41,654 bases of DNA. Origin: Opitutales bacterium (GTDB lineage Bacteria > Verrucomicrobiota > Verrucomicrobiia > Opitutales > Coraliomargaritaceae). Below are positions 8,175 to 38,216 of this stretch, one piece after another; the first letter of the stretch is position 1; each line of letters starts with the position of its first letter. The stretch covers positions 1 through 41,654 of the forward strand of contig JBMYNR010000014.1 in assembly GCA_049598495.1 (NCBI GenBank). The letters are read 5' to 3'. The notes under the pieces were generated by a model. It saw only the letters and a program-made list of their open reading frames with translations, was not told the origin of the DNA and searched no databases. Both the position numbers and the translations under genes were made by a program.

Positions 8175-8198
8175 TTCCTAACTTGCGAATTCACTAAC

Positions 8199-9700
<1,502 letters not shown>

Positions 9701-9701
<1 letters not shown>

Positions 9702-10231: not shown

Positions 10232-10240
10232 GTAAATCTC

Positions 10241-10894: not shown

Positions 10895-10899
10895 TTATT

Positions 10900-12171: not shown

Positions 12172-12176
12172 TCAAG

Positions 12177-12662: not shown

Positions 12663-12671
12663 AAAGCCAGG

Positions 12672-12875: not shown

Positions 12876-12968
12876 GCAGTTATTATTAGGTGATAAGCAG
12901 TGATGTTATCCATTTTTCGCTCTTGTTCACTCTAGCAACCTGGCTTTGAATTCTACCTTATTTGCGCA

Positions 12969-17160: not shown

Positions 17161-17617
17161 GGTGATGGCTGTGTTCCAGATTCTTCGGGTCGGCACAACC
17201 ACAGTGATTGTTCTCGATCCATGCTTCGGTTCCGTCACGATATACCTCTTTTTTCCAAATCGGAAGCCGGTGTTTCACATTATCAATGATGTAGCGGCAG
17301 GCGAGAAAGGTATCACCGCGATGGTGTGCAGTTACGCCTACCCAGACAGCGATTTCACCGACTCCGAGATTACCGACACGATGAAAGATGGCGGCATCCT
17401 CGATATGGAACTTTGCTTTTGATTCGTCTAGTATCGCTTGAGCAACAGAAGGCGCCAATTCGGCATAACCGCTGTAGTGCAATTCCTGAACAGGTTTGCC
17501 TTCGTTGTAGTCACGCACCCAGCCTTCATAGCTATTGTAGGCACCCGCACTTGATGAGAGGAGACGTGCCCGAAGCTCGGTCGGCTTGATGGTTTGCTCG
17601 GTCAGTGCAAAGTGCAT
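17150..17617 (-). CDS. moaE: Molybdopterin synthase large subunit
   Basis: GWVRD, HRVGNL, HHRGD and LPIWKKE. Confidence 0.93.
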   Translation of the reverse strand: MHFALTEQTIKPTELRARLLSSSAGAYNSYEGWVRDYNEGKPVQELHYSGYAELAPSVAQAILDESKAKFHIEDAAIFHRVGNLGVGEIAVWVGVTAHHRGDTFLACRYIIDNVKHRLPIWKKEVYRDGTEAWIENNHCGCADPKNLEHSHHHEH

Positions 17618-17618
17618 A

Positions 17619-17858
17619 TCAGCCGCCTGTCATTGGAGGAAGGAAAGCGATTGAGTCGCCGTCCTGAAGTTCGGTCTCGTGAGCGCTCAACTCATGATTA
17701 ATGGCCACTTGAATCTGGGTGAACTCGTGGGGAAATCCGTATTGTTCTCTTAGGCTTCCATAGAGCTTCTTGGGGCAAGGATCATCGAGCTGAACGATCT
17801 CACTTCTATGGCCGGCTAGGTCGCCCAGTTGTGCAAAATACAATATGTTAATCTTCAT
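17619..17858 (-). CDS. moaD: Molybdopterin synthase sulfur-carrier subunit
   Basis: ILYFA, VAIN and C-terminal AFLPPMTGG. Confidence 0.93.
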   Translation of the reverse strand: MKINILYFAQLGDLAGHRSEIVQLDDPCPKKLYGSLREQYGFPHEFTQIQVAINHELSAHETELQDGDSIAFLPPMTGG

Positions 17859-18445
17859 TGTTTGAATGTGGCTTCGAATTCAGCGGCGGTGTTGATATTA
17901 TCGAGACTGGAAGGGTCATCCTGATCAATCAGAGTCGCTTCTTTGAGAATAAGCAGCTTGCGGGGGCAACTTTTGCCGATCTCTTTCGAAAGTGTGAGTA
18001 GTTCAGCATCGGAACCTGCGGGATAAACCGCACAAAGTGGCTCGGGGAGACCATTGTGACTACTCCGGTAGGCCGTAAGTGATGGTGCGCTCCCGCGGAA
18101 GGCATCACAGAGCTTTTTGAGCGTTGTGACTTCAATCCTAGGCAGATCACAGGCCAGAACCAGCCAATGCACCTCCGGGTGAGCGTGCATCGCAGACAAA
18201 ATGCCACAGAGCGGTCCCTTTACCTGATCCATACAGTCGTGAATGACCTCCGTGCCCGCCGGTAGGGGGAATGCCTGGCTTCTTCGCTGAGACACCAAAA
18301 CACGGGAGCAAACCGATTGCAGCAGTGCGGATGTTTTCTCGAGTTGGGTTTGCTCACCATCGTAGGAAAGGAGCGCTTTGTCCCGTCCCATGCGAGTACT
18401 TTTGCCACCGGCCAGAACGAGGCCATAGATCTCCGCTTCGCTCAT
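17855..18445 (-). CDS. mobA: Molybdenum cofactor guanylyltransferase
   Basis: LAGGKSTRMGRDKA, GPLCGI, ACDLP, EPLCAVY and NINT. Confidence 0.92.
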   Translation of the reverse strand: MSEAEIYGLVLAGGKSTRMGRDKALLSYDGEQTQLEKTSALLQSVCSRVLVSQRRSQAFPLPAGTEVIHDCMDQVKGPLCGILSAMHAHPEVHWLVLACDLPRIEVTTLKKLCDAFRGSAPSLTAYRSSHNGLPEPLCAVYPAGSDAELLTLSKEIGKSCPRKLLILKEATLIDQDDPSSLDNINTAAEFEATFKQ

Positions 18446-18915
18446 GAACGCTTATAACCCGACTTTCCACCCGTTTTCTCAACGAGCCGCGTGCATTCAA
18501 TGACGATTCCTTTTGAAGCGGCCTTACACATATCGTAGATCGTGAGTGCGGCGACGCTGCTCGCTGTGAGCGCCTCCATCTCGACGCCCGTTTGGTCGAG
18601 CACCTTCACGCGTGCTTCCACCCGCAAACGCGCTTCATCCACAGGCTGGATCTCAATCTTAACCGACTTGAGATTCAATGGGTGGCAGAACGGGATCAAT
18701 TCGGATGTCTTCTTCGCAGCCATCGTGCCTGCGACAATCGCGGTATCGAGGATCGGTCCTTTCTTCGAATGCCAACTGGCCTCCGTGAGTGTCCGCATAA
18801 TCTCCTCGCCGAGGAATACGAAGGACTCCGCCGTGGCTGTGCGGTCGGTCGCTTCTTTGGCCGAAACATCGACCATTGTCGGTCGCTCGTTTTTGTCGAT
18901 ATGGCTAAACTCCAT
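18442..18915 (-). CDS. moaC: Cyclic pyranopterin monophosphate synthase
   Basis: MVDVSAK, LIPFCHPL, TGVEMEAL, IYDMCKA and KTGGKSG. Confidence 0.95.
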   Translation of the reverse strand: MEFSHIDKNERPTMVDVSAKEATDRTATAESFVFLGEEIMRTLTEASWHSKKGPILDTAIVAGTMAAKKTSELIPFCHPLNLKSVKIEIQPVDEARLRVEARVKVLDQTGVEMEALTASSVAALTIYDMCKAASKGIVIECTRLVEKTGGKSGYKRS

Positions 18916-18928
18916 AAATCAGTGTCAT

Positions 18929-20134
18929 CTAATACCAGGGGAAGAATTCGAATTGGCTGCCAGCAGGATAGCTCTTTTCATCCCTCGGTGGAAGAACGAT
19001 ATAACCATCACTCTCCAGAATTCCAACAAGATCACCTGAATTATTGACCAATTGAGGTGAAATGAGGTTCCCCGGTGACTTTTTCACCGGAAGTAAGACG
19101 GTCATATCGTCACGCGTTTTGGCATCGGTGCGAAGTGTAAGTTCGACCGCCGGGCAGTTCGCCGTCTTCCCCGAGGCGTCGAAGAGCGAGGGGATCACAT
19201 AGTGGTGGAGGCAGGAGAGACTGGAGAGAGGATTTCCGGGAAGTGCAAAAACCGCGGAGTCCTCGTTCGTCCAGAAGCCGAAAGGCTTGCCCGGCTTTTG
19301 CGCAACTCCATGAAAATGACAGGTAAACCCAAGCTCCTGCAGGGCCTCAGGGATAAAATCCTTCTTTCCCATGGAGATACCTCCGCTGATGATGATCACG
19401 TCGTTGTTCTCGAGCAGCAGCTTCAACTCGTTAATACTCTGCGCACAATCATCTTTAAGGTGCACAAATTCCCGGACGTTCAGCCCGATCCGTTCGAGCG
19501 CGGTATCGATCATCAAATGATTCGAGCGGCGTATTTGGTGGGGTTCCGGTTCATCGCAGATGTTGATGAGTTCATCACCCGTGCTCACTACGGCAAGGGC
19601 CGGTTTTCGGGAAACAAGAAGGTCCGCGTAGCCACAGCTTGCGGCAATTGCGGTTTCCCTTGCGCCGATGGTCGCGCCTTCGTCCAGAAGGATGGCATCC
19701 GCCGCACGATCGCTTCCGAGTTTGTGGATGCAATCACCTGCGGCGTGCTCCGTAGGGGACTTGAGCTGCATTTGCGTAGTGTGCGGTCGCGTTGTGGTCT
19801 CATAGGGGACCACGCAATCTGCGTTTTCGGGCAGGATGGCCCCCGTCATAATCTCGGCGCAGGAGAGTGGCCTGCTATCCAGAGTGATCTGCGGGTCACC
19901 TGCCGAACACTCGGCAACAATGTTGAAGAGAGCATTTCCATCGATATCCGAAGCACGAATGGCATAACCATCCATCATCGAGCGGTTGAAAGGTGGAAAA
20001 GGGCGGTCGGAAAGAACCTGCTGGCGTAAGATACGCCCGGCACATTTATCGAGTGGACAAAGAACCTGAGGCATCTTGTTCAGGTTCTCTTGAATCAAGC
20101 GTCGTGCGTCTTCCGGTGTAATCAGCGATTTCAT
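18929..20134 (-). CDS. moeA: Molybdopterin molybdenumtransferase
   Basis: PPFNRSMMDGYA, IMTGA, STGDEL, SGGISMGKKD, KPGKP and LPGNP. Confidence 0.95.
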   Translation of the reverse strand: MKSLITPEDARRLIQENLNKMPQVLCPLDKCAGRILRQQVLSDRPFPPFNRSMMDGYAIRASDIDGNALFNIVAECSAGDPQITLDSRPLSCAEIMTGAILPENADCVVPYETTTRPHTTQMQLKSPTEHAAGDCIHKLGSDRAADAILLDEGATIGARETAIAASCGYADLLVSRKPALAVVSTGDELINICDEPEPHQIRRSNHLMIDTALERIGLNVREFVHLKDDCAQSINELKLLLENNDVIIISGGISMGKKDFIPEALQELGFTCHFHGVAQKPGKPFGFWTNEDSAVFALPGNPLSSLSCLHHYVIPSLFDASGKTANCPAVELTLRTDAKTRDDMTVLLPVKKSPGNLISPQLVNNSGDLVGILESDGYIVLPPRDEKSYPAGSQFEFFPWY

Positions 20135-20181
20135 TCTGAATTTACGTGCAAGCTTGGAATTAATGGGTTTGTTATGCGTCG

Positions 20182-21186
20182 ATGGTCAAGGATAAGAGAG
20201 GGCGCCGCCTCACCGATTTGCGAATATCACTCACGGATCGCTGTAATCTGCGTTGCACATACTGTATGCCAAAAGAGGTCTTTGGTAAAGACTATGTCTT
20301 CCTGAAGAAAAACGAATGGCTGCGCTTCGGTGAGCTGTACGATTTAGTCGCCGCCTTCGTTCAACTGGGAGTTAGGAAGATTCGTTTGACCGGAGGCGAG
20401 CCGCTGCTGAGGCCCGGTCTGAATAAATATATCCACGGACTGAAGCACCTTCATAAGATCGAGGATATTGCTCTTACCACGAACGGGCTGCGTCTCGCTG
20501 AGCGGGTTTCCGAACTGAAAGAAGCGGGCTTAGACCGGATTACAGTGAGCTTGGATGCGCTGGATCCGGAGATTGCAGGTAGAATGAACGGGCTCGGCGT
20601 AAAGCCCAAATCGGTGATCGCAGGAATTGATGCGGCCCTGGATGCGGGTTTTCAAGTTAAGGTGAATATGGTGGTTCAAAGAAGTGTGAATCGCGGCGAA
20701 ATTCTCCCGATGGCACGTTACTTCAAAGACCGGGGCGTGAACTTACGCTTTATTGAGTTTATGGATGTCGGGAATCACAACGATTGGAAAATGGATGAAG
20801 TAGTTCGTGGAACTGAAATCCTGGAGACGGTCGGATCTGAACTGGATTTCGAACCGGTCGATGTCTCCTCCAGTAACGAAGTCGCCAAACGGTATCGCTA
20901 TCTGGACGGCTCTGCCGAATTCGGATTAATTACTTCGGTGACCCAAGCCTTCTGCGGTTCCTGCACACGGGCACGCATCTCAGCCGACGGCCAACTGTAT
21001 ACCTGTCTCTTTGCGAGCAAGGGAATCGACTTGAAGTCGATTCTTCGAGCACCCGACTACCGCGCCGGGAATCTTTTGGATACTCTGGCGGGCTTCTGGG
21101 GGCAGCGTGAAGACCGCTATTCCGAGCTCCGCTCGGAAACGGGTTCTACTGGTGAAAAGGTGGAGATGTCCTATATTGGGGGCTAA
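20182..21186 (+). CDS. moaA: GTP 3',8-cyclase (radical SAM)
   Basis: LRISLTDRCNLRCTYCMP, TGGEPLLR, FCGSCTRARI..TC and C-terminal MSYIGG. Confidence 0.96.
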   Translation: MVKDKRGRRLTDLRISLTDRCNLRCTYCMPKEVFGKDYVFLKKNEWLRFGELYDLVAAFVQLGVRKIRLTGGEPLLRPGLNKYIHGLKHLHKIEDIALTTNGLRLAERVSELKEAGLDRITVSLDALDPEIAGRMNGLGVKPKSVIAGIDAALDAGFQVKVNMVVQRSVNRGEILPMARYFKDRGVNLRFIEFMDVGNHNDWKMDEVVRGTEILETVGSELDFEPVDVSSSNEVAKRYRYLDGSAEFGLITSVTQAFCGSCTRARISADGQLYTCLFASKGIDLKSILRAPDYRAGNLLDTLAGFWGQREDRYSELRSETGSTGEKVEMSYIGG

Positions 21187-21187: not shown

Positions 21188-22141
21188 TCAGGACGTTTTC
21201 TTTTTCGTCGGCTTCGGCTTCTCCTTAGCCAGTGCCGGTCGCATGGTGCTGGCCACGGATTCACATATCCCGAGAAACGTCTCTTCTGTGATCGAGAGCT
21301 TCTTGTCTTTTGCGTAAGAAATTCCCCAGGTGCGGGTGATCTTTCGGCGCCCTGTAGGAATATGCACCAGACTGCCGGCGTTGATTTCGTTTTCGACGAT
21401 CCAGGATGCGAGGAAGCTGACTCCGTAGTTGATCTTAACCAGCTCTTTGATCGCCTCCATACTCCCCAGTTCGATGTAGTTCTCGAGGAGTAGCTTCTTC
21501 TGCCGGAAAAAATGCTCGATTTGATCAAAGGTGTAACTGCCTTTATTGTATAAAACCATGCGCTCCTGAGCAATTTTGTTCATTTTTGCCGTGCCAATTT
21601 GTGCAAATTCGTGAATCGGTGAGCTCACTAGAATAAGCTCATCGGAAAAAAGTGGCTTTACCTCCACGTCGTTCAACCCATCCGGCGCGACAATAATCGC
21701 CAAGTCGATCTCGTGTTTACGGGTCATTTCGAGCAGTTCATGGGTGTCTGCAGGGGTGATCGTGAGGATGCAGTCAGGGAAGCACTCATTGAACTCCCGA
21801 AGGACGTTAGGAAGTATGTGCTGGCAGGCTGTTGTACTCGCTCCTATGCGCAGGCGCCCGCGCCCCCAATTGGCCCGGTCCTGGATCCGGAGCCGTACCC
21901 CTTGCATCTGATTAAGAATGTTTTGTGCATCTTTATAGAGTTCCTCGCCGTCTTCTGTGATGTTGATTTTTCGCCCCGTTCGCGTGACCAATTGGCAGCG
22001 CAAATCGGTCTCCAAATTTTTTACGGAATGACTAATCGCTGACTGAGTAAGGCTCAGGATTTTTGCGGTTTCAGTGAAACTCCCAGTCTGGACAAGCGTG
22101 CAGAAGGCGAGGAGTTGACGGCTATCGATTGTTTCAAGCAT
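21188..22141 (-). CDS. LysR-family transcriptional regulator
   Basis: N-terminal HTH ([25 protein letters not shown]), GRLRIGAS and EAIKELV; divergent from the nitrate operon. Confidence 0.95.
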
Positions 22142-23303: not shown

Positions 23304-24674
<1,371 letters not shown>

Positions 24675-24700
24675 AAGGATTTTCTATCCAACCACTAACC

Positions 24701-24730
24701 AGCCTCCTTCCCGACGGGAAGGGGGCTTTT
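24701..24730 (+). terminator. Intra-operon hairpin with a short U-tract after nrtA
   Basis: AGCCTCCTTCCC-gac-GGGAAGGGGGCT-TTT. Confidence 0.65.
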
Positions 24731-24769
24731 CGGGTGACAGACCTAATTTTTAACAAACACGAATCTACC

Positions 24770-26398
24770 ATGGCTGAAAAAACAGCAGACGCGATCAAGT
24801 ATAAGATCCTTAAATTCCTAGATGTGACCGGCTTCACCGTTTTCGACCCGATGGTGCGCCTTGCCTTTGGCGAAGAACCAAAGAAGCAGGTCGAGGCGAT
24901 AATGAAGTATTTCGTTACGCCTCTCATCTTCCTGTGCTTCTGCCTTTGGGCTTGGTGGACGGTCGCGCCGAACCACAAGACGAAGTCCGGTGAGGTGCCG
25001 ACGCCCGACGTGGTCGCCAGTGCGGCAAAGATCAATCACACCTTCGCTGCCCGCGAAAAGACTAAGGAATCCGACTTTCTGTTGGTCGATGAGGAGCGTA
25101 TCCAAGCGCTCGTAGAGGTCGAAGCGATGATTGCAGAGAATGAGATCATTCTTGCCGAGTTGAGCGCGAACCTGAAGGAACAGGAGGCCGCTTACGAGGC
25201 ACAGCTCAATGAACGCCTCGCTCCGCTGCAGGCCGAACTGGATGATTTGAAGGCGTTCAACCGCGCCGCTTCCGATGCCCGCAAGGAGTCTATCAGCGCG
25301 ATTGCCACCGAAGTCGAGACAGGCGAGTCCGACTCCGCTTTTCTCGTCGCTGTCATCCGTGAGGACGGTGATGCCAAGGATGCCGAGCGCGCCGCTGAGT
25401 CGGTGATCAAGGACCAGATTGACGACATCCGGTCCGAGAAGTTCAAGCCTATGGAGATCGCCCGCCTTGAGGTGAATGCCGTGGCCGATGAGATCCAGTT
25501 CCTGAAGAAGCGCGTGGATTTTCTTTCCGATGCCAACCGCAGTGTTAAGGTCGAGGAAACAAAGATCAAGCTGGCTGAAACTGAGGAAAATCTCGCCACT
25601 GCAACCACTGCGAAGAAGGCACTGCTCGAAGCCAAGAAGGTTGTGCGGACCGAAGACTCGATCGCACGCCTCGAAGAGCAGCAGTATGCTTCTGCGATGA
25701 CCGTCTACCTGCAGATCAAGCGCAGTCTATTCACTGTTTTCGTAGGCTTTTTCATGGCGGCTTTTATCGCGATTCCAATCGGAGTCCTCTGCGGACTCAA
25801 TCGCATCGCGATGGCCTGTCTCACTCCAATTATATCGGTTTTCAAACCAGTCTCGCCTGTGGTTTGGCTCCTTATCTTCCAGATCATCGTGGGTGCCTTT
25901 TTCCCGGATCCGGAGTCACATCCTTTCTTTCTCTTTTTTAACAGTCTGCCTTTTTTCGGGGGTCTCGGAATCAATCCGGCACTTGTCTTCTCTGCATGCA
26001 CGGTTGCCATGTGCGCGGTATGGCCAGCGCTGGTGAACACCGCTCTCGGCGTATCCTCCATTGACAAGGATCATATTAATGTCGCTCGCGTCCTCCGTCT
26101 CGGCTTCTGGGATCGGCTGACCAAGATCATCATCCCTTCGGCGCTTCCTCTGGTTTTCGCCGGTTTGCGTATCTCGCTCGGTGTGGGCTGGATGGTGTTG
26201 ATTGCTGCGGAGGCGCTGTCGTCCTCCGACGGTCTCGGTAAGTTTGTTTGGGATGAATACCAGAACGGTTCGTCCTTCTCCTTCGCCAATATTCTCTACG
26301 CCTGCTTCGTCGTTGGGATCATCGGCTTCCTGCTCGACCGTATGATGATTGTTCTGCAGCGCTTCGTCGCCTTCGACGGCGGCGGAACCTCTCTATAG
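24770..26398 (+). CDS. nrtB: Nitrate ABC transporter permease with a large helical insertion
   Basis: [18 protein letters not shown], the EAA-like loop NVARVL, and [20 protein letters not shown] 24770 is preferred. Confidence 0.9.
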
Positions 26399-26399
26399 C

Positions 26400-26427
26400 C
26401 TAACTTCTAGATTCTAACTTATAACTT
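26400..26427. repeat. Degenerate heptamer tandem repeat
   Basis: CTAACTT-CTAGATT-CTAACTT-ATAACTT, between nrtB and the first ATPase gene. Confidence 0.6.
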
Positions 26428-26436
26428 CTTAGAATT

Positions 26437-27360
26437 ATGGCTTATTTAGAAATCGACAACGCGTCCATCGGCTTCGGTCCGCATGACAACCGCTATGAGG
26501 TGCTCACGGATATTAACCTCTCGGTCGAAGAGAACGAATTTATCGCTGTGGTGGGCTTTTCAGGTGCAGGGAAGTCGACGTTGATCTCGATGCTTGCGGG
26601 ATTGCTCTCTCCGGACAAGGGCGAGATTCGTATTCATGGTGAGGTGATTAAGGAGCCGTCTCCACGGCTTGGAATCATGTTCCAGAATTACTCGCTTCTG
26701 CCTTGGCTGACGGTGTTCGAGAATGTTGCACTGGCTGTGCAGCAGGTTTTCCCTAAATTCTCTAGGGCCGAACTCAAGGAGCATGTTGAGAAGTATGTGG
26801 CGATGGTGAAGCTCTCGCCCGCACTTGGTAAAAAGCCGTCCGAACTCTCCGGGGGGATGCGCCAACGTGCCTCACTTGCGCGGACACTGGCCATGCAGCC
26901 GGAGATTCTCCTGCTCGACGAACCGCTGTCAGCACTCGATGCCCTCACACGCGCTGAAATTCAGGACGAGATTATCAACATTTGGGAAAACGATAAACGG
27001 ACGATCGTCATGATTACCAATGACGTGGACGAAGCCGTTCTTATGGCCGACCAAATCGTGCCTCTTACGATGGGTCCATCCGCCACGCTTGACGAACCGT
27101 TCCCGGTTAACCTCGAGCGCCCGCGTAACCGCACTACGCTCAACACCAATCAGGAGTTCCGCCGACTTCGTAATGACATCTCAAAATACATGGTTACACT
27201 CAACGAAGAGACTAAAGCGCTTAGTGCCCATGAAGCGGTCGCCGACCTGCCCGACATGATGCCGCTTGATTTCACAAGCCTACCAGTCGGACCGGCACGC
27301 GGCCGGCGGCGTCGGAAGGTCGCTGACGTAATGAACCCGACCGTCACCTTTTTTAAGTAA
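26437..27360 (+). CDS. nrtC: Nitrate ABC transporter ATP-binding subunit 1 (NrtC-like, no fused regulatory domain)
   Basis: [25 protein letters not shown] and LLLDEP; the H-loop reads ITND. Confidence 0.88.
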
Positions 27361-27379
27361 ATAAAAACCGGATAGAAAA

Positions 27380-28234
27380 ATGTTAAGTGAACGCTACGTA
27401 GATATTTCCGATCTTGTTAAAGCTTACCCGAACCCATTCGGAGATGAGATAAAGGTCGTCGACGGCTTTAATCTCAAAGTCCCGCAGGGTGATGTCGTCT
27501 CGATTATCGGCCACTCCGGCTGTGGTAAGTCCACTGTGCTCAATATGATCGCCGGCCTCATCCCAATCTCAGCTGGCGGCATCATTGTTGCAGGCAAAGA
27601 GATTGATGGCCCGGGCCCGGATCGTGCGGTTGTTTTTCAAGCACCCTGTTTGCTCCCATGGATGACCGCTTTCGGCAATGTCATGATCGGTGTGAAGGTC
27701 AGCTACCCGCACGTCTCCAAGGCAGAGCGTACGGAGATGGTTGAAGCCGCACTCAGCATGGTGGGCCTCAAGGACTCCATGTATAAATACCCGCGTGAGA
27801 TGTCGGGTGGAATGCAGCAGCGAGTGGGTATCGCCCGAGCCATCGCGCTGAAGCCGCGTATGCTGCTTCTCGACGAGCCACTCGGCCGCCTCGACTCGCT
27901 CACGCGGATGGAGCTCCAGGATGTGATCCTTCGCATTCTTGATAAGGAAAAGATTACCACGATGATCATCACTCACGATCCTGATGAAGCCGTCTATATG
28001 TCGGACCGGATTTGCATGATGACGAACGGTCCGCATGCAAAAGTCGGTGAGGTCATGGAAATCGAGTTTGAAAGGCCCCGTGATCGCGCGGCCATAGTGG
28101 AAACCGATCAGTTCTACGAATATCGCCGTCGCCTTCTTGCCTTCCTTGATGAGTGCGAGGCTGAGAAGGAAGAACGTCGTATGCTCAAGGCTTCCAAAAC
28201 GGAGGAAAAAGAGCCAGTTCGCAAGGCTAGCTAG
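27380..28234 (+). CDS. nrtD: Nitrate ABC transporter ATP-binding subunit 2
   Basis: [26 protein letters not shown] and MMTNGP. Confidence 0.88.
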
Positions 28235-28252: not shown

Positions 28253-29995
28253 ATGTCCGAATCTTTCAGCACGACCCAGAAGCAGTATCTCGAGGGTTTT
28301 TTCGCAGGCGTCAACCAGCGTCCGCAGATGCCCTTTCTTGGCCAAAACACCGCGGGTCAGTTCACCGGGGATCCGGCCGAGGCGGTTGAGGAGACAGTCT
28401 ACGGAACACCCGTTGATGAGCTCTGCAAAGAAGAGCAGATCAAGCACGAGCAGAACGGTCTCGATGTATGGGACACCATCGTCAAGGACTCGGAGATCGG
28501 TCAATTCCCGCAGGGTGGGGACCTTTTTCGGTATAAGTTCTACGGGCTTTTTCATGTGAAACCCGCGCAGGACTCGCTCATGTTACGATGTCGTATCGCT
28601 GGTTGCGCGCTAAAGGCGCATCAAATGGTGGGTCTCGCGGAGATCGCGGAAGACTGGGGTGGCGGCTATGCCGACATCACGACGCGTGGCAACTTCCAGG
28701 TGCGGGAGATCATGCCAGGCGACACGGTGTCGACACTAATCAAACTGGATGAGCTCGGACTTACCTCAAAGGGCTCTGGCGCAGACAACCTTCGGAATGT
28801 TACGGCGAGCCCGACTAGTGGCTTCGATCCTGATGAAGTGCTCGATGTGCTGCCTTATGCAAAATCCATGCACCATTATATTTTAAACAACCGCGACCTC
28901 TACGGTCTGCCACGTAAGTTCAATATCTCCTTTGATAACGGTGGCCGCGTCTCTGTTTGTGCCGATACGAACGACATCGCCTTTTATGCCGTGCGGGTGG
29001 GGGAAGGGCAGGTGGTGGAGCCAGGAGTTTACTTCAGAGTTCAACTCTGCGGGATCACGGGGCATAAGCAGTTCGCCTCCGATTGTGGACTTCTGATCAA
29101 ACCGGATCAGGCCGTACCTCTCGCTGCAGCCATGATCCGCGTCTTCATCGAGAACGGCGACCGCACGAACCGGAAAAAGGCACGTCTGAAATACTTGGTA
29201 GATAATTGGGGTGTTGAGAAATTCCTCGAAGAGACGAGTAAGAAACTTGCGTTTGAGCCGACGCGTCTCGCGCTTGAAAATTGTGAACCCCGAATGCCGG
29301 TCTACAAGCATGGCCACGTGGGTGTCTACAATGAGCGTGAAGAAGGCCTAAACTATGTTGGCGTCGTTATTCCTGTGGGGCGGATGCTGCCGGATCAAAT
29401 GCGCGCCATCGCCGCCATTGCCTCGAAGTATGGACGCGGAGATATTCGCCTGACTGCTTGGCAGAATCTGATCATTCCCGGAATTAGGGACGCAGATCTC
29501 GATTCGGTGAAAAAGGCGATCACTGCGGCTGGTTTCCACTACAAGAATACGACGATCTCGGGCGGTCTTGTTGCTTGCACCGGTAATGTCGGCTGCAAGT
29601 ATGCAGCCAGCAACACGAAGAGCCACGCACTCCAGCTCACCAAGTTCCTAGAATCTGAAATCGAATTAGATCAACCGATCAATATTCATCTCACCGGGTG
29701 CCATCACTCCTGCGCACAACACTACATCGGCGATATTGGCTTGATCGGTGCCAAGGTCAAGGTGGGGGAAGAGAGCGTGGAGGGTTACGCGGTCGTTCTT
29801 GGCGGAGGTGTGGACGATCAACAGGCCATCGCCCGCGAGATCTTTCCCGGCACAGCTTTTGAGGAACTCAAGCCCCTGATTCTCCGGGTCTTGAATACTT
29901 ACCTCGCGCAACGCCAAGAAAAGGAAACTTTCTGGCAATTCACCCGTCGGCACAGTGCCGACGAATTGAAGAGTCTTTTCTCTGTGGCTGCGTAG
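28253..29995 (+). CDS. nirA: Siroheme nitrite reductase, NirA family
   Basis: [22 protein letters not shown], and the siroheme/[4Fe-4S] motif CTGNVGC...TGCHHSC; lies in a nitrate operon. Confidence 0.9.
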
Positions 29996-30019: not shown

Positions 30020-31609
30020 GTGTCCTCTACGCTCACAGTCGAAGATTCTCCCCTGGAGATTCTTTTGAAGGAACAAGGGACCCTCCGGACTCCGGTTGGA
30101 CTCTTTTCCGAAGAGCACGACGCTGGTCTCGTTGAGCCCGAGCAGGCGCAGTTTTACAAACGATTGCTGCCGCTTTCAAAACCGGGCGAGGGCGAGCAAT
30201 ATGCCTTTAAAGTCGACCTGGACAAGTGTACGGGCTGCAAGGCATGCGTATCAGCCTGCCACAGTTTGAACGGGCTCGACGAGAACGAGACATGGCGGGA
30301 TGTCGGCACCATTCATGGAGTGGATTTTTCGGGGGCTTCATATACCCAGACGATTACCACAGCCTGCCACCACTGTGCCGATCCGGGATGTCTGAATGGC
30401 TGCCCTGTCCTGGCGTACGAGAAGGATGAGGATAGCGGGATTGTCCGTCATTTGGATGACCAGTGCATCGGTTGCCAATATTGCGCCCTTAAGTGCCCTT
30501 ACGATGTTCCCAAGTACTCGAAGAGCTTGGGCATTGTTCGCAAATGCGACATGTGCCATAGCCGCTTAGCGGATGGAGAAGCTCCCGCCTGCGCTCAAGC
30601 CTGCCCAACGGAGGCAATTAGTATTACTATCGTGAATACGGCTGCGGTCAGTGAACTGGCAGTTGGCGGAAAGGGCTTTCTTCCGGCAGCACCCGAACCG
30701 GGCTATACGATACCGACCACTCAATATGTGACCGAGAAGACGATACCGAAAAATGTGGAGGCGGCCGACTTGCGTGCGCTCCGCCCAGAGCACGCTCACT
30801 TCCCCCTGGTCTTTATGCTCATACTGACTCAATTGTCCGTCGGTTTGTATCTTTTCTCCATGATCGATCCGGAGTCCGCGACATCGGTCGGCACAAGAGT
30901 CATAGCATTTTTGGCGATGGTTCTAGGGCTCGGCGCCTCGACTTCACATTTGGGACGTCCACTTGGTGCGTGGCGTGCCTTCCTTGGCTTGAAACGTTCG
31001 TGGTTAAGCAGGGAGATTGTAGTGTTCGGGATGTTCTCGATGGCGGCGGCGGTTTACACGCTCTCGGCTTTCCTTGAAGTAATTCCCTTGGGTATTGCCA
31101 CCTTTTCGGCGATCTCTGCCGCGGTCCTCGGCGTTGGGGGTTTGGTCACCTCTGTTATGATCTATCACGACACCCAGCGCCCGTTCTGGAATCTTCGGCT
31201 TGGAGGAGCGAAGTTCTTCGGCAGTGCGCTCTGTCTTTCTGCATCGGCATATTTTCTCGTGGCGACGTTCAATGGGGCATCTCCGACCTGGGCGATGTTC
31301 CTGATGGCCGTGGGTCTGATGCTGAAACTCGTTTTGGAAGGTGCCACGCTCACCAATTGGAATGAACGGGGAATGTCGCCGGCACGCAAGTCAGCCATGC
31401 TCCAACTGTATCCGCTGCGATTGCTCGTGATCAGTCGTTTCATCCTGGCGGCGATTGTATTGCTCCTTACGAGTACCTTAATCCTGCAACCTATGAACTG
31501 GATCATGGCGGCCATCGTGTCTGCAGCCCTGCTCCTGTCTGAACTACTCGAGCGTACGTTGTTCTTTAAAGCTGTCGCTGCTCCAAAGATGCCGGGAGGT
31601 GTCTACTAA
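30020..31609 (+). CDS. Four-cluster Fe-S protein fused to a DmsC/YnfH-type membrane anchor
   Basis: [30 protein letters not shown] and KCDMC..PAC..CP, then PLVF..TQ, HLGRP, SWLSRE and ~8 TM helices. GTG start. Confidence 0.88.
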
Positions 31610-33837
31610 TGAGCCTACTTGAGATAGCCAAGGATCAGATGCGTATTCGCGCTCATGACGGTGTGCTGACCGAACGCCTCGTCCAGGATCCGGCGTCGCA
31701 TGGGTTGGGACGGCTGCCGAAATCCGTGAAACCGGATGCGACCGTGAACAGTATCTGTGGTTTCTGCGGAACGGGCTGCTCACTCAAGGTGCACTTAAAG
31801 GATGGTGAAGCGGTAAATTTGAGCGCGCAGACAAGCTATCCCGTTAATATCGGAATGGCTTGCCCGAAGGGCTGGGAATCATTGACGCCTCTGAAGGCAA
31901 AGGATCGGGCGACCACACCTTTACTTCGTAATGAGTATGGTGAGTTGGAGCCTGTGTCCTGGGAGGTGGCAATGGATGCATTCGTGCGCAACTTCAAGCT
32001 CACTCTGAACGAGCACGGTAGTGGTGCGGGTGCGTTTCTAAGCACGGGTCAGATTGTAACCGAGGAAATGGCCTTCCTTGGTGCGCTGGCAAAACTTGGC
32101 ATGGGCATGCTTCATGGCGATGGGAACACACGCCAGTGCATGGCGACCGCGGTTGTGGCTTATAAGCAATCCTTCGGCTACGATGCGCCGCCATTTTCCT
32201 ACAAGGATTTTGAGGAATCGGATGTTCTCGTGTTTGTTGGCGCCAACCCCTGCATCGCACACCCGATCATGTGGCAGCGTGTGATGCTCAATAAGAGGAA
32301 CCCGGAGATCATCGTGGTGGACCCGCGAAAGACCGAAACCGCGATGGCGGCCACCACGCATCTGCCGATTGCGCCCAAGTCTGATCTCACGCTTTTTTAC
32401 GGGATCGCGGCTCGTCTGATCGAGCTGGATTTGATCGACAAGGATTTCATCGCCTCGCACACCAACGATTTTGAGGCCTTCAGGGCATTTCTTAAGTCGC
32501 ACAATATCGATCGCGCATCTGAGCTGAGCGGTATCGATGCTTCTGAGATTGATCGCATCGCCCGACTGATTGGATCAGGCAAACGAGTCTCCTTCTGGTG
32601 GACGATGGGGGTTAATCAGAGCTATGAGGGAGTTCGTCTGGCCCAGTCGTTGATCAACCTCGCTTTGATGACTGGAAACATCGGAAAGCCTGGGACGGGT
32701 GCGAATTCGATTACGGGTCAGTGTAATGCGATGGGTTCCCGTCAGTTCAGCTTCACCACGAGCCTTCCTGCGCTGCGCGAGTTCACGTCAGCGAAAGACC
32801 GCCAGGAGGTTGCGGATATTCTCAATATCCCGGTTGAGCGTTTCCCTACTGAAAACAGCTATGCTTACAACGAGATCATCGAGGCAATTGACCGTGGGGA
32901 GATCAAGGCGCTCTGGATGGTCGCCACGAATGCAGGGCATTCATGGATCAACCAGAAAAAATTTAGGAGGATTCGTGAGAAGCTCGATTTCTTCGTTGTG
33001 CAGGATATGTATGGCAACACGGACACAGCGCAGATTGCCGACCTTGTTTTGCCTGCGGCTGGTTGGGGTGAAAAAGATGGCGTCTTTATTAATTCGGAGC
33101 GTCGTTTAGGACTGACCCGCAAAGTCCGAAAAGCGCCCGGCCAGGCGCTCTCTGATTTCAATATCTTCCGCTTGATCGCGCACTATTGGGGCTGCGCCGA
33201 TTTGTTCGAGGAATGGTCGTCGCCTGAGGCGGTTTTCCATATTCTTGCGCGACTCAGTAAAGGTCGCCCCTGTGATTTCACGGCTGTGGAAGGCTATGAT
33301 TTCCTCGATCAAAGCGGTGGGGTGCAATGGCCCTTTCCAGCTTCGCTTGGAGTGAAAGTAAAGAGTGGAGAGTACGAATTGGCGAAGGAACGTCGTCTCT
33401 TCGAGGATGGGGAATTCTATCATGCGGACGGGAGGGCGCGATTTGTCTTTGAAGAACCGCGGAGCATGCCCGAGCCTCCGGATGAATCCTATCCCTTCAT
33501 TCTTTTAACAGGCCGGGGCACTTCCTCGCAGTGGCACACGGGTACCCGTACGAGAAAATCGGACGTCCTGCAGAAGCTCTATCCCAAATCCCCGTATGTA
33601 GAGATTAGCCCAGTTGATGCGGAACGCCTCGGTATCAAGCCCGAAGATTTGGTTTTTGTTCGTTCGAGACGCGGAACCGCCAGGGTCAAGGCGGTTGTGC
33701 TTGGGAGCTTGCAGGAGGGTCAGGTCTTCATGCCGATGCATTACCCGGAAACGAATCAACTCACGCTGGATGCCTTCGATCCGTATTCCAAGGAGCCTTC
33801 TTACAAAGCCTGCGCCGTCAAAATTGAGAAGGCCTAG
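31609..33837 (+). CDS. nasA: Mo-bisPGD nitrate reductase catalytic subunit, assimilatory (NasA/NarB) type
   Basis: [19 protein letters not shown] (Mo-ligand Cys), [24 protein letters not shown] and EPSYKACAV; no Tat signal and no C-terminal BFD domain. Confidence 0.88.
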
Positions 33838-33872: not shown

Positions 33873-35609
33873 ATGACAAACGCACCATATATTCCAGATA
33901 GCGCACCCTTCAGCGAAGATCAACGCGCATGGCTGAACGGATACCTTGCGGGGCTTTACTCGTCCGATGGCAACGCGGACAACTCCGCGCCCGTTGCTGC
34001 CACTCCGGTTACGATTCTTTTCGGCTCGCAGACGGGAACCGCAGAGACACTCAGTAAAAAAGCGGCCAAGCAACTCAAGGCCTCGAATTGCGAACCGACC
34101 ATCGTGGATATGGGCGATATCTCGGCGGAAGAACTCCAGGCCGTGGAGAACCTATTGATTATTACGAGCACTTACGGTGAAGGAGAGCCGCCCGATAATG
34201 CTCAATCACTCCATGCGGCCTTGATGAGCGACGGAGCTCCGAAACTAAAGGCAACCCGCTTTTCCGTGATGGGCCTGGGCGATTCGTCTTATCCGGATTT
34301 CTGTCAATGCAGCAAGGAGTTCGATGCGCGACTGGAGGCTCTCGGCGCACAACGTTTTGCGCCAATGGTCGAAGCGGATGGTGATCCGGATGATGCTTTT
34401 TCTGAGTGGCTCGGGGCTGTCCAAGGAGTATTGGGCGAAGCCGGTTCGAGCGCAGCAGCCGTCGTTGAGTCTGAAGGCGACAGTAATGAGCCGGAGTTTC
34501 ACAAGAAGAACCCATTTCCCGCTACATTACTCAAGACAGAGAATCTAAACAAGGAAGGCTCGTCGAAGGTGACACACCATGTTGAGATTTCCCTCGAAGA
34601 CTCGGGACTCGATTACGAAGTCGGTGATGCGCTGGGGGTGTATCCCGAAAATAATGCACGACTCGTCGATGAGATTATCGAAGCGGCGGGCTTTGCGCCC
34701 GAGGAGTCGGCACCCGTTCCGGCTGGTGACGATTTACCTGTTTTTGAGGCACTTCGCTTCCACTACGATGTGAGCGTGCTCACGGAAGCATTTCTTTTGG
34801 CATGCGCCCGTTTGACGAAAAACGAGGAGCTGCATTCGATCGTTTCTGATGAATCCAAGCGGGAAGAGTATCTTTCCGGTAGGGGGCTCGTCGATCCGAT
34901 CATCGATTTCGGGGTGAAATTCCCAACAACCGAATACCTCGTGGCCCCGCTCAAGAGTCTCAATCCGCGTCTCTATTCAATCTCATCCAGCCCTAAGGCG
35001 CACCCGGGCGAAGTTCATTTGACGGTAGGAAAGGTGACTTACGATCTGCATGGGCGCGAGCGCATGGGTGTTTGCTCTACCTATCTTGCTGAGCACAAGC
35101 TCGATCGTCCGGTGAGAATTTACGTGCACGCAAACAAGGCCTTCCGACTCACAGAGAATGACGATGCGCCGGCGATCATGATCGGACCGGGCACCGGGAT
35201 TGCACCATTCCGAGCATTCCTTGAAGAACGGGAAGCGCGCGGCGCGAAGGGGAAGAATTGGCTATTTTTCGGCGACCAGCATGCGGCCACTGATTTTCTC
35301 TATCAGGATCAAATCGACTCGTGGATGAAGTCCGGCCTGTTGACGAAACTCGATACCGCCTTCTCTCGCGACCAGCAAGAAAAGATCTATGTGCAGAACC
35401 GTATCATTGAGCATGCCAATGAATTCTTCCAGTGGCTGGAAGAGGGCGGCAGCATTTACATCTGCGGGGATGCCAGTCGTATGGCGAAGGACGTCGATGC
35501 TGCCATCCACAAAGCGGTTGAACTGGCGGGGAATAAGTCTGAAGACGAGGCCAAGGCCTACGTAGAGGCGTTAAAGAAAGAGAAGCGTTACCTTCGCGAC
35601 GTCTATTGA
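33873..35609 (+). CDS. CysJ-like NAD(P)H diflavin reductase (flavodoxin + FAD/NAD domains)
   Basis: FGSQTGTA, STYGEGEPP, LGDSSY, RLYSISSS, GVCSTYL, GPGTGIAPFR, YICGDA and RYLRDVY. Confidence 0.92.
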   Translation: MTNAPYIPDSAPFSEDQRAWLNGYLAGLYSSDGNADNSAPVAATPVTILFGSQTGTAETLSKKAAKQLKASNCEPTIVDMGDISAEELQAVENLLIITSTYGEGEPPDNAQSLHAALMSDGAPKLKATRFSVMGLGDSSYPDFCQCSKEFDARLEALGAQRFAPMVEADGDPDDAFSEWLGAVQGVLGEAGSSAAAVVESEGDSNEPEFHKKNPFPATLLKTENLNKEGSSKVTHHVEISLEDSGLDYEVGDALGVYPENNARLVDEIIEAAGFAPEESAPVPAGDDLPVFEALRFHYDVSVLTEAFLLACARLTKNEELHSIVSDESKREEYLSGRGLVDPIIDFGVKFPTTEYLVAPLKSLNPRLYSISSSPKAHPGEVHLTVGKVTYDLHGRERMGVCSTYLAEHKLDRPVRIYVHANKAFRLTENDDAPAIMIGPGTGIAPFRAFLEEREARGAKGKNWLFFGDQHAATDFLYQDQIDSWMKSGLLTKLDTAFSRDQQEKIYVQNRIIEHANEFFQWLEEGGSIYICGDASRMAKDVDAAIHKAVELAGNKSEDEAKAYVEALKKEKRYLRDVY

Positions 35610-35712: not shown

Positions 35713-35801
35713 GTTCAATTCGTTTCAAATGAATACAATTGGCACAGATGGTGTTACTAAACATTTCGGGAAAAGGCACTCTTTCCAACAACAAACTAGA
35801 A

Positions 35802-37037
35802 ATGAATACAGTATATAAACTCACTACTATGGCAGCCCTCGTGGCTGTTAACACAACCGGCCTTCTGGCCGATTCTATCGAGTCCGCCCTCGACGACTCC
35901 AAAGCAAAGCTTTCCGAGGCGGTTCCGGGCAAATTCTCGATCAACTCCCGCGTGCGCTACGAGGTTTTTGACGTGGATAATGGCAATCCAGCCCTTGACC
36001 GCGACGGAACTTCGCTCCGTGTCCGCTATGGCTACACTACGCCGAATTTCGAAGGATTCACAGCGATGGTTGAAGGCGAGACTTTAACGCGCCTCGGTGG
36101 TGATCCTGCAGACATACACCCGCTTGACGATGCCGGTGACGGCACCGATCTAAACCAACTCTGGGTGCAGTATGCTGACGCGGACAATGGTAAAGTTAAG
36201 GTAGGACGCCAGATTTACGCACTTGATGACCAACGTTTTATCGGTCATGTTGGATGGCGCCAAAATATCCAGGTTTTTGATGCCGCTACCTTCGACTATA
36301 CTGGTGTTGATAAAGTCTCCGTGAAGGGCTTCTTTATCGATGAACGTCATCTTGTGGGCGGAACGCATAATAAAACGGATACATGGGGCCTGAATGTATC
36401 CTACGCTTTTGCTCCTTCATTTAAGCTTACAGGTTTCTATTATGATATCGAGGGTGAAGATGCGGCTGCTACAACAAGTCAGACTATTGGTCTGCGCGCC
36501 ACCGGTTCCTACAAGATTGAGGATGTGAAGCTGGCTTACTCTGTTAGCATCGCAGAGCAGGAAAATGACGGTTCACCGCTTGCGGACTATGATGCCGGTT
36601 ACTTTGCCGGTGATCTGGCTGCGACATTCAGTGGCCTTACCCTTGGTGGTGGCTTTGAGATTCTTGAGCCGAGTTTCCGCACACCGTTTGCGACGGTCCA
36701 TAAGTTCAATGGTTTTGCCGATGCACTGCTTCCTCTGGGAGGTTTCGCGGAGGGACTTGAGGATATGTATGTCTATGCGGGCTACAAAATCCCTGTGGGT
36801 AACGGCATTGCTTTTAAAGTTATCTATCACTGGTTCGATGCTGAAGATTCGGCTCCTGGTCGGGATGGTGGTGAAGAACTCGACTTTGTCGCTTCATACA
36901 AAATCAATAAGTATTTCAACATACTAGCTAAGTATGGAAGTTACGAATCCGATGGTGGTCTTACTGCGCCTGACCCAGCTTGGTCTGGTCGAGCTGATAA
37001 GGATATGTTCACCCTCGAGCTCAATTTCGTATATTAG
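35802..37037 (+). CDS. Outer-membrane beta-barrel porin, alginate-export-family-like
   Basis: Signal peptide, RVRYE, KVGRQ..LDDQRFIGHVGWRQN, FRTPFATVHKFNG, and a C-terminal aromatic residue (ELNFVY). Confidence 0.8.
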   Translation: MNTVYKLTTMAALVAVNTTGLLADSIESALDDSKAKLSEAVPGKFSINSRVRYEVFDVDNGNPALDRDGTSLRVRYGYTTPNFEGFTAMVEGETLTRLGGDPADIHPLDDAGDGTDLNQLWVQYADADNGKVKVGRQIYALDDQRFIGHVGWRQNIQVFDAATFDYTGVDKVSVKGFFIDERHLVGGTHNKTDTWGLNVSYAFAPSFKLTGFYYDIEGEDAAATTSQTIGLRATGSYKIEDVKLAYSVSIAEQENDGSPLADYDAGYFAGDLAATFSGLTLGGGFEILEPSFRTPFATVHKFNGFADALLPLGGFAEGLEDMYVYAGYKIPVGNGIAFKVIYHWFDAEDSAPGRDGGEELDFVASYKINKYFNILAKYGSYESDGGLTAPDPAWSGRADKDMFTLELNFVY

Positions 37038-37062
37038 GTTTAGGCGTTATTGTTTAGGTTTG

Positions 37063-37092
37063 AGCGAGGTCGCTACGGCGGCCTCGCTTTTT
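37063..37092 (+). terminator. Intrinsic terminator after the porin gene
   Basis: AGCGAGGTCGC-tacg-GCGGCCTCGCT-TTTT. Confidence 0.8.
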
Positions 37093-37136
37093 CGTTGTCG
37101 GAAATCCCGTATCTCTGTGCACTGAAAGGCAGCCGA

Positions 37137-38216
37137 ATGTCCTACAACGCACGAATCGCAGAATGCTACCAAGAGGTCTCACTCAGTCGTGAGGAGCTGG
37201 CCTACTATGCACGGCATATCTTGCTGCCAGGTGTCGGTCTGGACGGGCAACGAAAGCTGAAAGCGGCTCGTGTTCTTGTTGTGGGTGCAGGAGGGCTCGG
37301 GTGCCCCGTGTTGCAGGGCCTCGCGGGCGCAGGTGTCGGGCAGATCACGGTGGTCGATGGCGATCAAGTCTCGAAGTCAAATTTATCCCGGCAATGGCTC
37401 CACGACTATGCCGAGGTCGGGCGAAATAAGGCAGACTCCGCAGCCGCGAGTATCGAGAAACGGAATCCGTTTATTTCCGTGCTGGCTGTGGCTGAGATGC
37501 TGGCGGAGACTAACGCCCGGACGCTCATTGAGTCCTGCGATCTTGTGGTCGATGCCACAGACGATCTCGAGGTTCGTTATCTAATTGATTCGGTCTGTGC
37601 GGCTCAGGGTCGTCCGTGGATTCATGCGGCGCTCTACCGAGAGTCCTCTCAGATGACCGTTTTCTGGGCGTCATGTGGCGCGACCTTTCAGAGTCTCTAT
37701 CCGGACCCTTCAATTGCGCCTTCCTGCTCAGGGGCCGGGATGTTGGGTGCGAGCGCCAGCCTGACGGGCAACCTGCAAGCCTTGGAAGCAATCAAACTCA
37801 TTACCGGCACGGGGAGACCAACTGTTGGCGAAGTGGTCTCGATTAACTCGGCCGATCTTGTGATGGAGCGATTCCGCATGGCTGGCATTTCTCAACCCAA
37901 ACCGATCACATCGGAGGCGGCCTCCTCATCACCATGGGCACTTTCGGCCAGCGAGCTAAAACAAGCCCTCTCAATACACCAATCGCTGACTCTAGTCGAT
38001 CTTCGCAAAGAAGGAGAGGCATTGGTTCAGAATTCCATCCGCATGACAGAGGAGCAAGTGCTGGAAGCGGGCCTTCCTGAACAGGTCTCAGGGAGGACGG
38101 TGCTTGTCTGTGAAAAGGGGATTATCAGTGCGATGCTTGCTGATGCGCTATCCCGTTATCACGAACAACTTTACTTTCTCGAAGGCGGCACGCAGGCCTT
38201 CGAGGAACTAGCCTAA
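37137..38216 (+). CDS. moeB: MoeB/ThiF adenylyltransferase with a C-terminal rhodanese-like domain
   Basis: YARHILL..GQRKLK, VGAGGLG, D..SNLSRQ, DATD and PSC..GMLG; C-terminal VLVCEKG and LEGG. Confidence 0.85.
   Translation: MSYNARIAECYQEVSLSREELAYYARHILLPGVGLDGQRKLKAARVLVVGAGGLGCPVLQGLAGAGVGQITVVDGDQVSKSNLSRQWLHDYAEVGRNKADSAAASIEKRNPFISVLAVAEMLAETNARTLIESCDLVVDATDDLEVRYLIDSVCAAQGRPWIHAALYRESSQMTVFWASCGATFQSLYPDPSIAPSCSGAGMLGASASLTGNLQALEAIKLITGTGRPTVGEVVSINSADLVMERFRMAGISQPKPITSEAASSSPWALSASELKQALSIHQSLTLVDLRKEGEALVQNSIRMTEEQVLEAGLPEQVSGRTVLVCEKGIISAMLADALSRYHEQLYFLEGGTQAFEELA

Follow-up and report, generated by a model that had tools for sequence, protein, structure and literature searches.

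We describe a putative two-subunit nitrite reductase encoded in a stretch of DNA of 41,654 nucleotides (hereinafter, the window), which is contig JBMYNR010000014.1 (C14) of the 1.75 Mb genome of an Opitutales bacterium from the family Coraliomargaritaceae of the Verrucomicrobiota (assembly GCA_049598495.1; denoted G000). The two proteins in question are NirA, a siroheme/[4Fe-4S] nitrite reductase, and a CysJ-like NADPH diflavin reductase, the proposed electron donor of NirA. Because NirA and this flavoprotein encoded in the same operon begin with the same helix, it is probable that the two comprise a single NADPH-driven nitrite reductase. In the version of this scenario that we favor, and consider reasonably likely on the basis of comparative sequence analysis, nitrite is assimilated by an NADPH-dependent reductase with NirA and the CysJ-like protein as its two subunits, which are tethered by paired helices. 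The functional pairing of the two proteins and the homology of the helices are strongly supported; the physical pairing of the helices, the stoichiometry of the complex and the role of NADPH as the donor are what we infer.

The N-terminal helix of NirA and of the CysJ-like reductase

The nirA gene (positions 28253-29995; forward strand, as are all features of the nitrate gene cluster discussed here) encodes a protein of 580 amino acids (aa) that belongs to the NF007126 type of NCBIfam ('NirA family protein'). The match to this model, with aa 1-578 aligned to model positions 3-589, reaches 868.1 bits, the cut-off being 523, and the model takes in the N-terminal helix. The match to NF007125, the equivalog model for ferredoxin-nitrite reductase, begins at aa 56 and, with 375.7 bits, falls under the cut-off of 594. 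The Pfam domains NIR_SIR and NIR_SIR_ferr identify NirA as a sulfite/nitrite reductase hemoprotein, and none of the Pfam domains of the NirBD-type enzymes (Pyr_redox_2, BFD or the Rieske-like domain of NirD) was detected in it. The original prediction, made from the letters of the window, that this protein is neither NirBD-like nor a ferredoxin-NirA equivalog is supported by both the domain content and the NF007125 score. Named organisms among the top NirA homologs are members of the Opitutales and Puniceicoccaceae, such as Coraliomargarita and Lentimonas. The cysteines C442, C448, C483 and C487 are invariant among 86 NirA sequences, and we read them as the likely ligands of the siroheme/[4Fe-4S] cluster. 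In the AlphaFold2 (AF2) model of NirA (mean predicted local distance difference test score, pLDDT, of 93.8), aa 47-577 match plant nitrite reductase and Mycobacterium tuberculosis NirA with Z-scores of 46-47; in the structure comparison, no solved homolog aligns with the residues before approximately aa 47. Within this N-terminal region, aa 7-22 are predicted to form a helix (pLDDT 75-83).

The CysJ-like reductase (578 aa; positions 33873-35609) contains the Pfam domains Flavodoxin_1, FAD_binding_1 and NAD_binding_1, in this order, that is, the flavodoxin, FAD and NAD(P)H domains of a CysJ-like diflavin reductase. It scores 650.8 bits with TIGR01931 (cysJ), just below the cut-off of 668.15, and 517.5 bits with the CysJ equivalog NF008197, below the cut-off of 838, and its FNR half matches NF004859 ('sulfite reductase subunit alpha'). 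The AF2 model of the reductase (mean pLDDT 90.2) starts with a helix at aa 15-29 (pLDDT 77-86), followed by the flavodoxin domain from aa 44. Each of the two helices had been predicted to precede a flexible linker. For the reductase, this is the case, with aa 31-39 (positions 33963-33989), between the helix and the flavodoxin domain, displaying pLDDT values below 50 and differing in both length and sequence between orthologs; for NirA, the prediction stands only in part, given that aa 21-50 have pLDDT values of 63-80 and that this stretch shows partial conservation in Verrucomicrobiota and Acidobacteriota.

The alignment from which the original prediction started, aa 5-20 of NirA (positions 28265-28312) with aa 13-28 of the reductase (33909-33956), is reproduced exactly by the translations; it is ungapped, with 7 of the 16 positions identical by hand count. 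In NirA, this segment carries the motif F-[ST]-x-E-Q-K-x-Y-L-x-G-F-x-x-G, inside the predicted helix. In the reductase, it is the core of a longer motif, P-x-[IL]-P-[DE]-x-A-P-F-[ST]-x-x-Q-R-A-W-L-N-G-[FY]-[LF]-A-G (aa 5-30; positions 33885-33962), that includes a conserved P-[DE]-x-A-P-F cap ahead of the helix. Comparison of the N-terminal alignments of 86 NirA orthologs (A4) and 84 reductases (A3) using hhalign yielded a probability of 97.5% and an E-value of 6.1e-12 over 24 ungapped columns. When hidden Markov models (HMMs) of the two motifs were run against all six-frame open reading frames (ORFs) of the genome that are 30 aa or longer, the best non-self matches of each were the other two motif-containing proteins (E-values 0.005-0.016), and a loose regular expression for the motif produced three matches in the six frames of the whole genome, namely, NirA, the CysJ-like protein and a canonical CysJ. 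With the profile comparison and the reciprocal, genome-wide HMM matches combined, it is confirmed at the level of sequence that the same predicted element is carried by two unrelated folds, and that the likeness is far from chance. Pfam includes no family for either N-terminus, and a search of solved structures with both motif profiles gave nothing better than an E-value of 0.57.

The conserved positions of the two motifs coincide at an offset of 8 (F5/Q9/Y12/L13/G15/G19 of NirA and F13/Q17/W20/L21/G23/G27 of the reductase). The 86 NirA orthologs are invariant at Q9, and conservation reaches 90% or more at F5, Y12, L13 and G15; among the 84 reductases, which represent three domain architectures, P12 and G23 are invariant, and the 90% level is reached or exceeded at P8, A11, F13, Q17, R18, W20, L21, N22 and A26. 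Nearly every position of the reductase from Q17 to G23 is conserved, as are A26 and G27. The glycine pairs G15/G19 of NirA and G23/G27 of the reductase provide the G-x-x-x-G spacing, a helix-packing motif. Beyond what was originally predicted, the motif is family-wide in NF007126, the partners of NirA come in three architectures, and the copy of the motif in the reductase is longer, capped and conserved on all faces of the helix, compared with a single face in NirA.

The canonical CysJ of the same genome is encoded by a separate gene on contig C10 that is divergent from the adjoining cysI (approximately 45728-47293; locus L128). It contains two consecutive copies of the helix, both of which are matched by the reductase-motif HMM, compared with the single copy in the NirA-linked reductase, and the NirA-motif HMM matches the second of these helices. 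A related segment had also been noted in the oligomerizing N-terminus of Escherichia coli CysJ, and this is supported by a match of the reductase-motif HMM to aa 29-60 of that protein, albeit a weak one (12.8 bits); according to a preprint from the Stroupe laboratory, the N-terminal 51 residues of E. coli CysJ make the octamer. Judging by its position, within the first approximately 50 residues and ahead of the flavodoxin domain, the motif appears to belong to this oligomerization segment. No match to the motif HMMs was obtained for E. coli CysI.

Co-occurrence of the two genes and diversity of the partners

The genomic contexts of nirA were compared in two sets of loci. In a sample of 201 Verrucomicrobiota genomes, 20 contain an NF007126 match over the cut-off, and 19 loci in addition to the window were retrieved; from a scan of one genome per species, the best 80 of at least 598 related stretches were analyzed, bringing the total to 99 loci. 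Judging by the record titles, Verrucomicrobiota, Acidobacteriota, Planctomycetota, Alpha-, Beta- and Gammaproteobacteria, a Salinivenus and a Spirochaetaceae metagenome-assembled genome (MAG) are represented among these 80 stretches. A motif-bearing reductase is encoded near nirA in 88 of the 99 loci, that is, in 18 of the 19 from Verrucomicrobiota, where both motifs are conserved whenever the CysJ-like gene is present, and in 70 of the best 80 stretches; the NirA motif is in frame in 79 of these 80, and in another frame in L078. Across the loci, the partner gene is mostly located directly downstream of nirA, whereas in the window and its closest relatives, it lies 3.9-4.2 kb downstream, past the Fe-S/DmsC and nasA genes. 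Among the 67 nirA/partner pairs, out of 73, for which the spacing was obtained, there are 19 ATGA overlaps and 5 larger overlaps, and in 31 others the partner is within 50 nt of the end of the nirA ORF, the pattern one would expect of translationally coupled subunits.

Five of the 10 loci in the second set without a motif-bearing reductase appear, from locus lengths and gene positions, to be truncated: L062, L085, L087 and L092 end just past nirA, and L020 stops short of where the partner gene is usually located. The other five (L031, L032, L033, L035 and L038) are of the Verrucomicrobiales type. An unlinked partner was sought in five genomes, those of L031, L033, L035 and L038 and genome G081 (locus L011), and in four of the five, a single-motif CysJ-like gene encoding a protein of 591-606 aa, 49-52% identical to the reductase of the window, was found elsewhere in the genome.

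The specificity of the motif is nearly complete. At E-values of 0.01 or lower, the 99 loci (1.73 Mb; 29,675 six-frame ORFs) contain 98 matches in NirA, 88 in the reductases, one in the frameshifted NirA N-terminus of L078 and one other, a 47-aa ORF of L036 (E-value 0.0093 among the 29,675 ORFs), which was inspected and set aside as a probable chance match. Among the 201 Verrucomicrobiota genomes, a reductase-motif match of at least 41.9 bits is present in 21, namely, the 20 with an NF007126 match over the cut-off and G165, in which the NirA match is cut by the contig end; the other 180 genomes encode no single-motif reductase at this score. The carriers are spread over seven families. Of the weaker matches (28-36 bits), three fall on the N-terminus of NirA itself, and the remaining six are taken as canonical CysJ, given that their frames span 602-626 aa and that, in three cases, the contig also contains a CysI-type match. 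The co-occurrence of the motif with nirA/cysJ-like pairs, one of the checks proposed for the original prediction, is seen both in the loci and in whole genomes.

In control comparisons, neither a motif match nor a CysJ-like neighbor was seen in any of the 12 loci that encode a ferredoxin-type NirA or a sulfite reductase; the CysI proteins at two canonical cysI-cysJ loci lack the motif, as do the ferredoxin-type NirA paralogs in two Verrucomicrobiota loci. L015 and L016 encode the motif-bearing NirA and reductase together with a motif-less ferredoxin-type NirA paralog, as well as an unusually long NasA-like ORF of approximately 1180 aa. Of the 150 cluster representatives found with NirA, 27 contain the motif. 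Seven representatives are fused to reductase modules of their own (NirB-like Pyr_redox_2/BFD, Rieske and FNR-like, or cNMP-binding and FAD_binding_6), and the motif is present in none of these seven. Two natural fusions of NasA with NirA (P0123 and P0125) retain the NirA motif inside the polypeptide, where one enzyme joins the other. An apparent fusion of NirA with its partner (P0158) was rejected as a frameshift-ridden gene call, its middle and C-terminal parts being garbled and running into a partner-type N-terminus.

The partners themselves are diverse. Pfam analysis of 30 partners reveals three classes, in which the motif is followed by the flavodoxin, FAD and NAD domains, as in the reductase of the window; by a PF04060 ('putative Fe-S cluster') domain and the FAD and NAD domains, mostly in Proteobacteria and Planctomycetota; or by flavodoxin alone. 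The small domain of the PF04060 type, which takes the place of flavodoxin in most of the loci from these two groups, has the signature C-G-x-C-G-Y-x-C ... C and comes after a conserved P-W-H-D segment (loci L058-L099, e.g. L068:11791-13365). The flavodoxin-only partners (L028:6371-6946 and L029:2024-2632; 192-203 aa), which have no FNR, are encoded by a member of the Akkermansiaceae and an unclassified Verrucomicrobiota MAG. When the 88 partners were classified by regular expressions, 42 were assigned to the flavodoxin-FNR class and 28 to the Fe-S-FNR class, and in 5, FNR was recognized and the carrier missed; in the remaining 13, the FNR signature is absent or the gene is cut or frameshifted, with the two flavodoxin-only proteins counted here along with three full-length ones in which the FNR expression missed its target. 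In all partners, the motif directly precedes the carrier domain, from which it is separated by a variable linker, and it is the only element that is common to all architectures.

A possible tethered nitrite reductase and alternative explanations

The reduction of sulfite or nitrite is a six-electron reaction. As in the E. coli sulfite reductase CysJ8-CysI4 (SiRFP/SiRHP), a siroheme/[4Fe-4S] hemoprotein and an NADPH diflavin reductase are encoded side by side, and the proposed nitrite reductase would be built on the same plan but tethered differently. Each subunit opens with one copy of a helix, F-x3-Q-x2-[YW]-L-x-G-[FY]-x2-G, that is of the GxxxG packing type and is homologous to the second helix of the oligomerizing N-terminal segment of CysJ. 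The helix of NirA would pack on that of the reductase, possibly within a larger bundle that holds further copies of the reductase, and the disordered linker would let the carrier domain, flavodoxin in the window and a small Fe-S domain elsewhere, swing from the FAD/NADPH domain to the [4Fe-4S]-siroheme site of NirA. The carrier domain would then take the role that free ferredoxin plays for the plant NirA.

Comparison with the known systems helps to delineate what is distinct about this pair. The reductase resembles E. coli CysJ in having the same helix motif at its N-terminus, where, in E. coli, it lies inside the 51-residue octamerization segment (Stroupe-laboratory preprint), but differs from the canonical CysJ in having one copy of the helix instead of two in tandem. 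Unlike the CysI proteins of E. coli and of the genome analyzed here, the NirA hemoprotein also bears the helix; the substrate-reducing enzyme is of the NirA type, and the FNR domain, which is used in the known stable CysI-CysJ contact according to the same preprint, is absent from some of the NirA partners. The catalytic fold is shared with the plant and cyanobacterial ferredoxin-NirA (2AKJ and 3B0G; Z-scores of 46-47 and approximately 30% identity over aa 47-556), from which the NirA of the window differs in that its first approximately 47 residues, including the helix, fall outside all alignments with solved homologs, in the NF007125 score below the cut-off and in the presence of a dedicated reductase gene. 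Like NirBD, it would be a siroheme nitrite reductase dependent on a pyridine nucleotide; NirB, however, combines its own FAD/NAD domain and a BFD-type cluster in one chain, and such representatives lack the helix, whereas the NirA of the window consists of NIR_SIR and NIR_SIR_ferr only. A CysJ-like diflavin module also participates in nitrate assimilation in the fused nitrate reductases of the NasA/CysJ type, but there, the module is covalently attached to the molybdenum nitrate reductase, whereas here it is a separate protein that would be paired with the nitrite reductase by the shared helix. The genetically characterized assimilatory NirA of Bradyrhizobium japonicum (bll4571) may be comparable; in the published account, growth on nitrate and on nitrite depends on it, its physiological electron donor is unidentified, with Flp being dispensable for growth on nitrite, and the authors call it 'putative ferredoxin-dependent'.

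Several observations weigh against tethering by paired helices. According to the Stroupe-laboratory preprint, the stable contact between CysI and CysJ is formed by the N-terminal 80 residues of CysI with the FNR domain, not by the octamerization segment, and NirA contains a region equivalent to that CysI N-terminus (aa 50 onward align to 9c91_B with a Z-score of 39.4). The link to E. coli K-12 CysJ is a weak HMM match, as noted above. The fifth of the genomes with an orphan nirA that were searched for an unlinked partner (G204) yielded just a double match on a single 617-aa frame, which, by analogy with the double match of CysJ in the genome analyzed here, we read as a canonical-type CysJ. The genomes included in the co-occurrence counts are related, so that the counts overstate the independence of the observations. 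Finally, the helix of the reductase is conserved on all faces, and that of NirA on one face (plus K10); because the conserved faces differ, the two helices do not seem to be equivalent, and the reductase helix may be a hub that binds more than the NirA helix.

Among 70 distinct pairs, the mutual information scores between the two motifs are low and confounded by phylogeny. Q17 of the partner is replaced (by E or A) only where F5 of NirA is replaced (by L or A), in four loci (L017, L066, L071 and L089) from at least two lineages, and in L019, F5 is replaced by L with Q17 kept. This count, from a very small sample, was made by hand from pair listings and partly reproduced by a mutual-information script, and F5-Q17 as a possible contact pair is accordingly a weak lead.

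In a more specific, tentative version of the proposal, the helix would serve as a portable code for assembly that is split between two proteins. In the canonical CysJ, the two tandem copies are a capped helix and, after it, a second helix; here, the capped copy would be on the reductase and the other copy on NirA, and one helix of each would together rebuild the N-terminal unit of CysJ. The rebuilt units would bundle into a hetero-oligomer of fixed stoichiometry, and a single socket on NirA would accept interchangeable donors, be it flavodoxin-FNR, Fe-S-FNR or flavodoxin alone. If this is true, the split code would be a modular plug for electron-transfer partners of a kind not described for siroheme enzymes.

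Alternatively, the two proteins might cooperate without pairing of the helices, each helix serving the self-association of its own protein, as in the octamer of CysJ, with NirA contacting the reductase through its core or through aa 50-110 and the FNR domain. The contact between CysI and the FNR domain in E. coli, described in the preprint, and the structural equivalence of the NirA region with the N-terminus of SiRHP (9c91_B) provide a precedent, and we consider this explanation a minor but realistic contender. Three lines of evidence speak against it: the flavodoxin-only partners, which have no FNR, and the NirA proteins encoded next to them still bear the motif (L028 and L029); helices that share a conserved face should intermingle within a single bundle; and the NirA relatives that use ferredoxin or are fused to a reductase lack the helix, which ties it to the presence of a partner rather than to the self-assembly of NirA.

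Somewhat less likely still, each helix could dock on a conserved patch of its partner's body, the cap and helix of the reductase fitting, for instance, in a groove of the NirA core, in which case the likeness of the two would reflect common descent rather than contact between them. The conservation of every face of the reductase helix and the additional P-x-x-A-P-F cap, which go beyond the needs of a simple helix pair, are compatible with this possibility. The NirA helix, however, is kept in all lineages while the bodies of the partners differ, which leaves no common surface for it to bind.

The targeting peptides of microcompartments take this form, with an amphipathic helix at the N-terminus and a linker behind it on several enzymes from the same pathway. 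It is conceivable, then, that both helices act like encapsulation peptides and bind a third component, such as a compartment shell, an assembly chaperone, the membrane or the DmsC-anchored Fe-S protein, and a membrane-anchored Fe-S protein is indeed encoded between nirA and the reductase gene in the window. We regard this as improbable, however, inasmuch as many loci consist of nirA and the reductase gene only, with neither the DmsC fusion nor any other shared neighbor; no shell-protein family was detected by Pfam among the 31 larger ORFs of the window; and the invariant glutamine and glycine residues favor a specific protein contact. Furthermore, NasA and the Fe-S/DmsC protein of the window lack the motif: the motif HMMs gave no alignment with either, even at E-values up to 1000 in the case of the Fe-S/DmsC protein, and a third copy of the helix on these two proteins was not found among the ORFs of the genome, those of the loci or by direct alignment. 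Lastly, the motif is short, and by a rough estimate, the regular expression should yield about one chance match in a genome of this size, but fortuitous likeness combined with a coincidental neighborhood is hardly credible in view of the profile E-value, the near-exclusive specificity over the 99 loci and the matching presence of the motif in the 201 genomes.

The nitrate assimilation gene cluster and implications

The nirA gene belongs to a cluster of genes on the same strand that, in order, encodes an NMT1-like protein, NrtABCD, NirA, a DmsB/DmsC-like fusion protein, NasA, the CysJ-like reductase, a porin and a ThiF/MoeB-family protein. The genes for the nitrate ABC transporter, nrtABCD (23304-28234), are located directly 5' of nirA; nrtA and nrtB are identified by Pfam, and the names of nrtC and nrtD come from the ORF translations and synteny with related loci. 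The NrtB permease (24734-26398) consists of 554 aa, with about 330 residues, many of them charged, preceding the BPD_transp_1 domain (aa 346-540); this long form is common to the closest relatives, whereas in more distant loci, NrtB is approximately 270-350 aa long. Between nirA and nasA lies a gene whose product combines a DmsB-like 4Fe-4S dicluster protein with a DmsC-like membrane anchor in one chain (30020-31609; Pfam Fer4_11 and DmsC), followed by nasA itself (31609-33837), which encodes a molybdopterin-containing assimilatory nitrate reductase by both Pfam and NCBIfam. The fusion gene is syntenic with nasA in many loci, which suggests a quinol-linked, membrane-anchored, cytoplasmic assimilatory nitrate reductase. 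The fusion protein has its own conserved N-terminal helix, L-[IV]-D-x-L-L-x-E-Q-x-x-L-Q-T-P-V, which is not recognized by the HMMs of the NirA and CysJ motifs.

Elsewhere in the window, molybdenum cofactor genes (MOSC, MobA, MoaC, MoeA, MoaA and ThiF/MoeB-like) and the porin gene flank the nitrate cluster (16690-21186 and 35739-38216), and a LysR-type regulator is encoded at 21188-22141. The region 4141-15909 encompasses an alternative complex III cluster (multiheme cytochrome, Fe-S protein, NrfD-like protein, ActD and cytochrome c) and, 3' of it, a heme-copper oxidase with FixO-like and cytochrome c subunits.

The two protein families described here are already catalogued (NF007126 and NF004859). 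A literature search, the coverage of which left out most subscription journals, turned up no description of a NirA/CysJ-like pair or of the shared helix. To our knowledge, where a 'ferredoxin-nitrite reductase' is annotated in heterotrophic bacteria, its electron donor has usually not been identified, Bradyrhizobium being an example. If the present interpretation is correct, the NF007126 NirA proteins of many lineages, including Verrucomicrobiota, Acidobacteriota, Planctomycetota, several classes of Proteobacteria and others, would each be one half of an NADPH-linked, two-subunit enzyme, and the potential for nitrate assimilation, along with its cost in reductant, would be read differently from genomes and metagenomes. 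The N-terminal segment of CysJ, which is structurally unresolved, would also gain its first functional role in partner binding, and reductases could be wired to siroheme enzymes by means of a small tag that is transferable between proteins.

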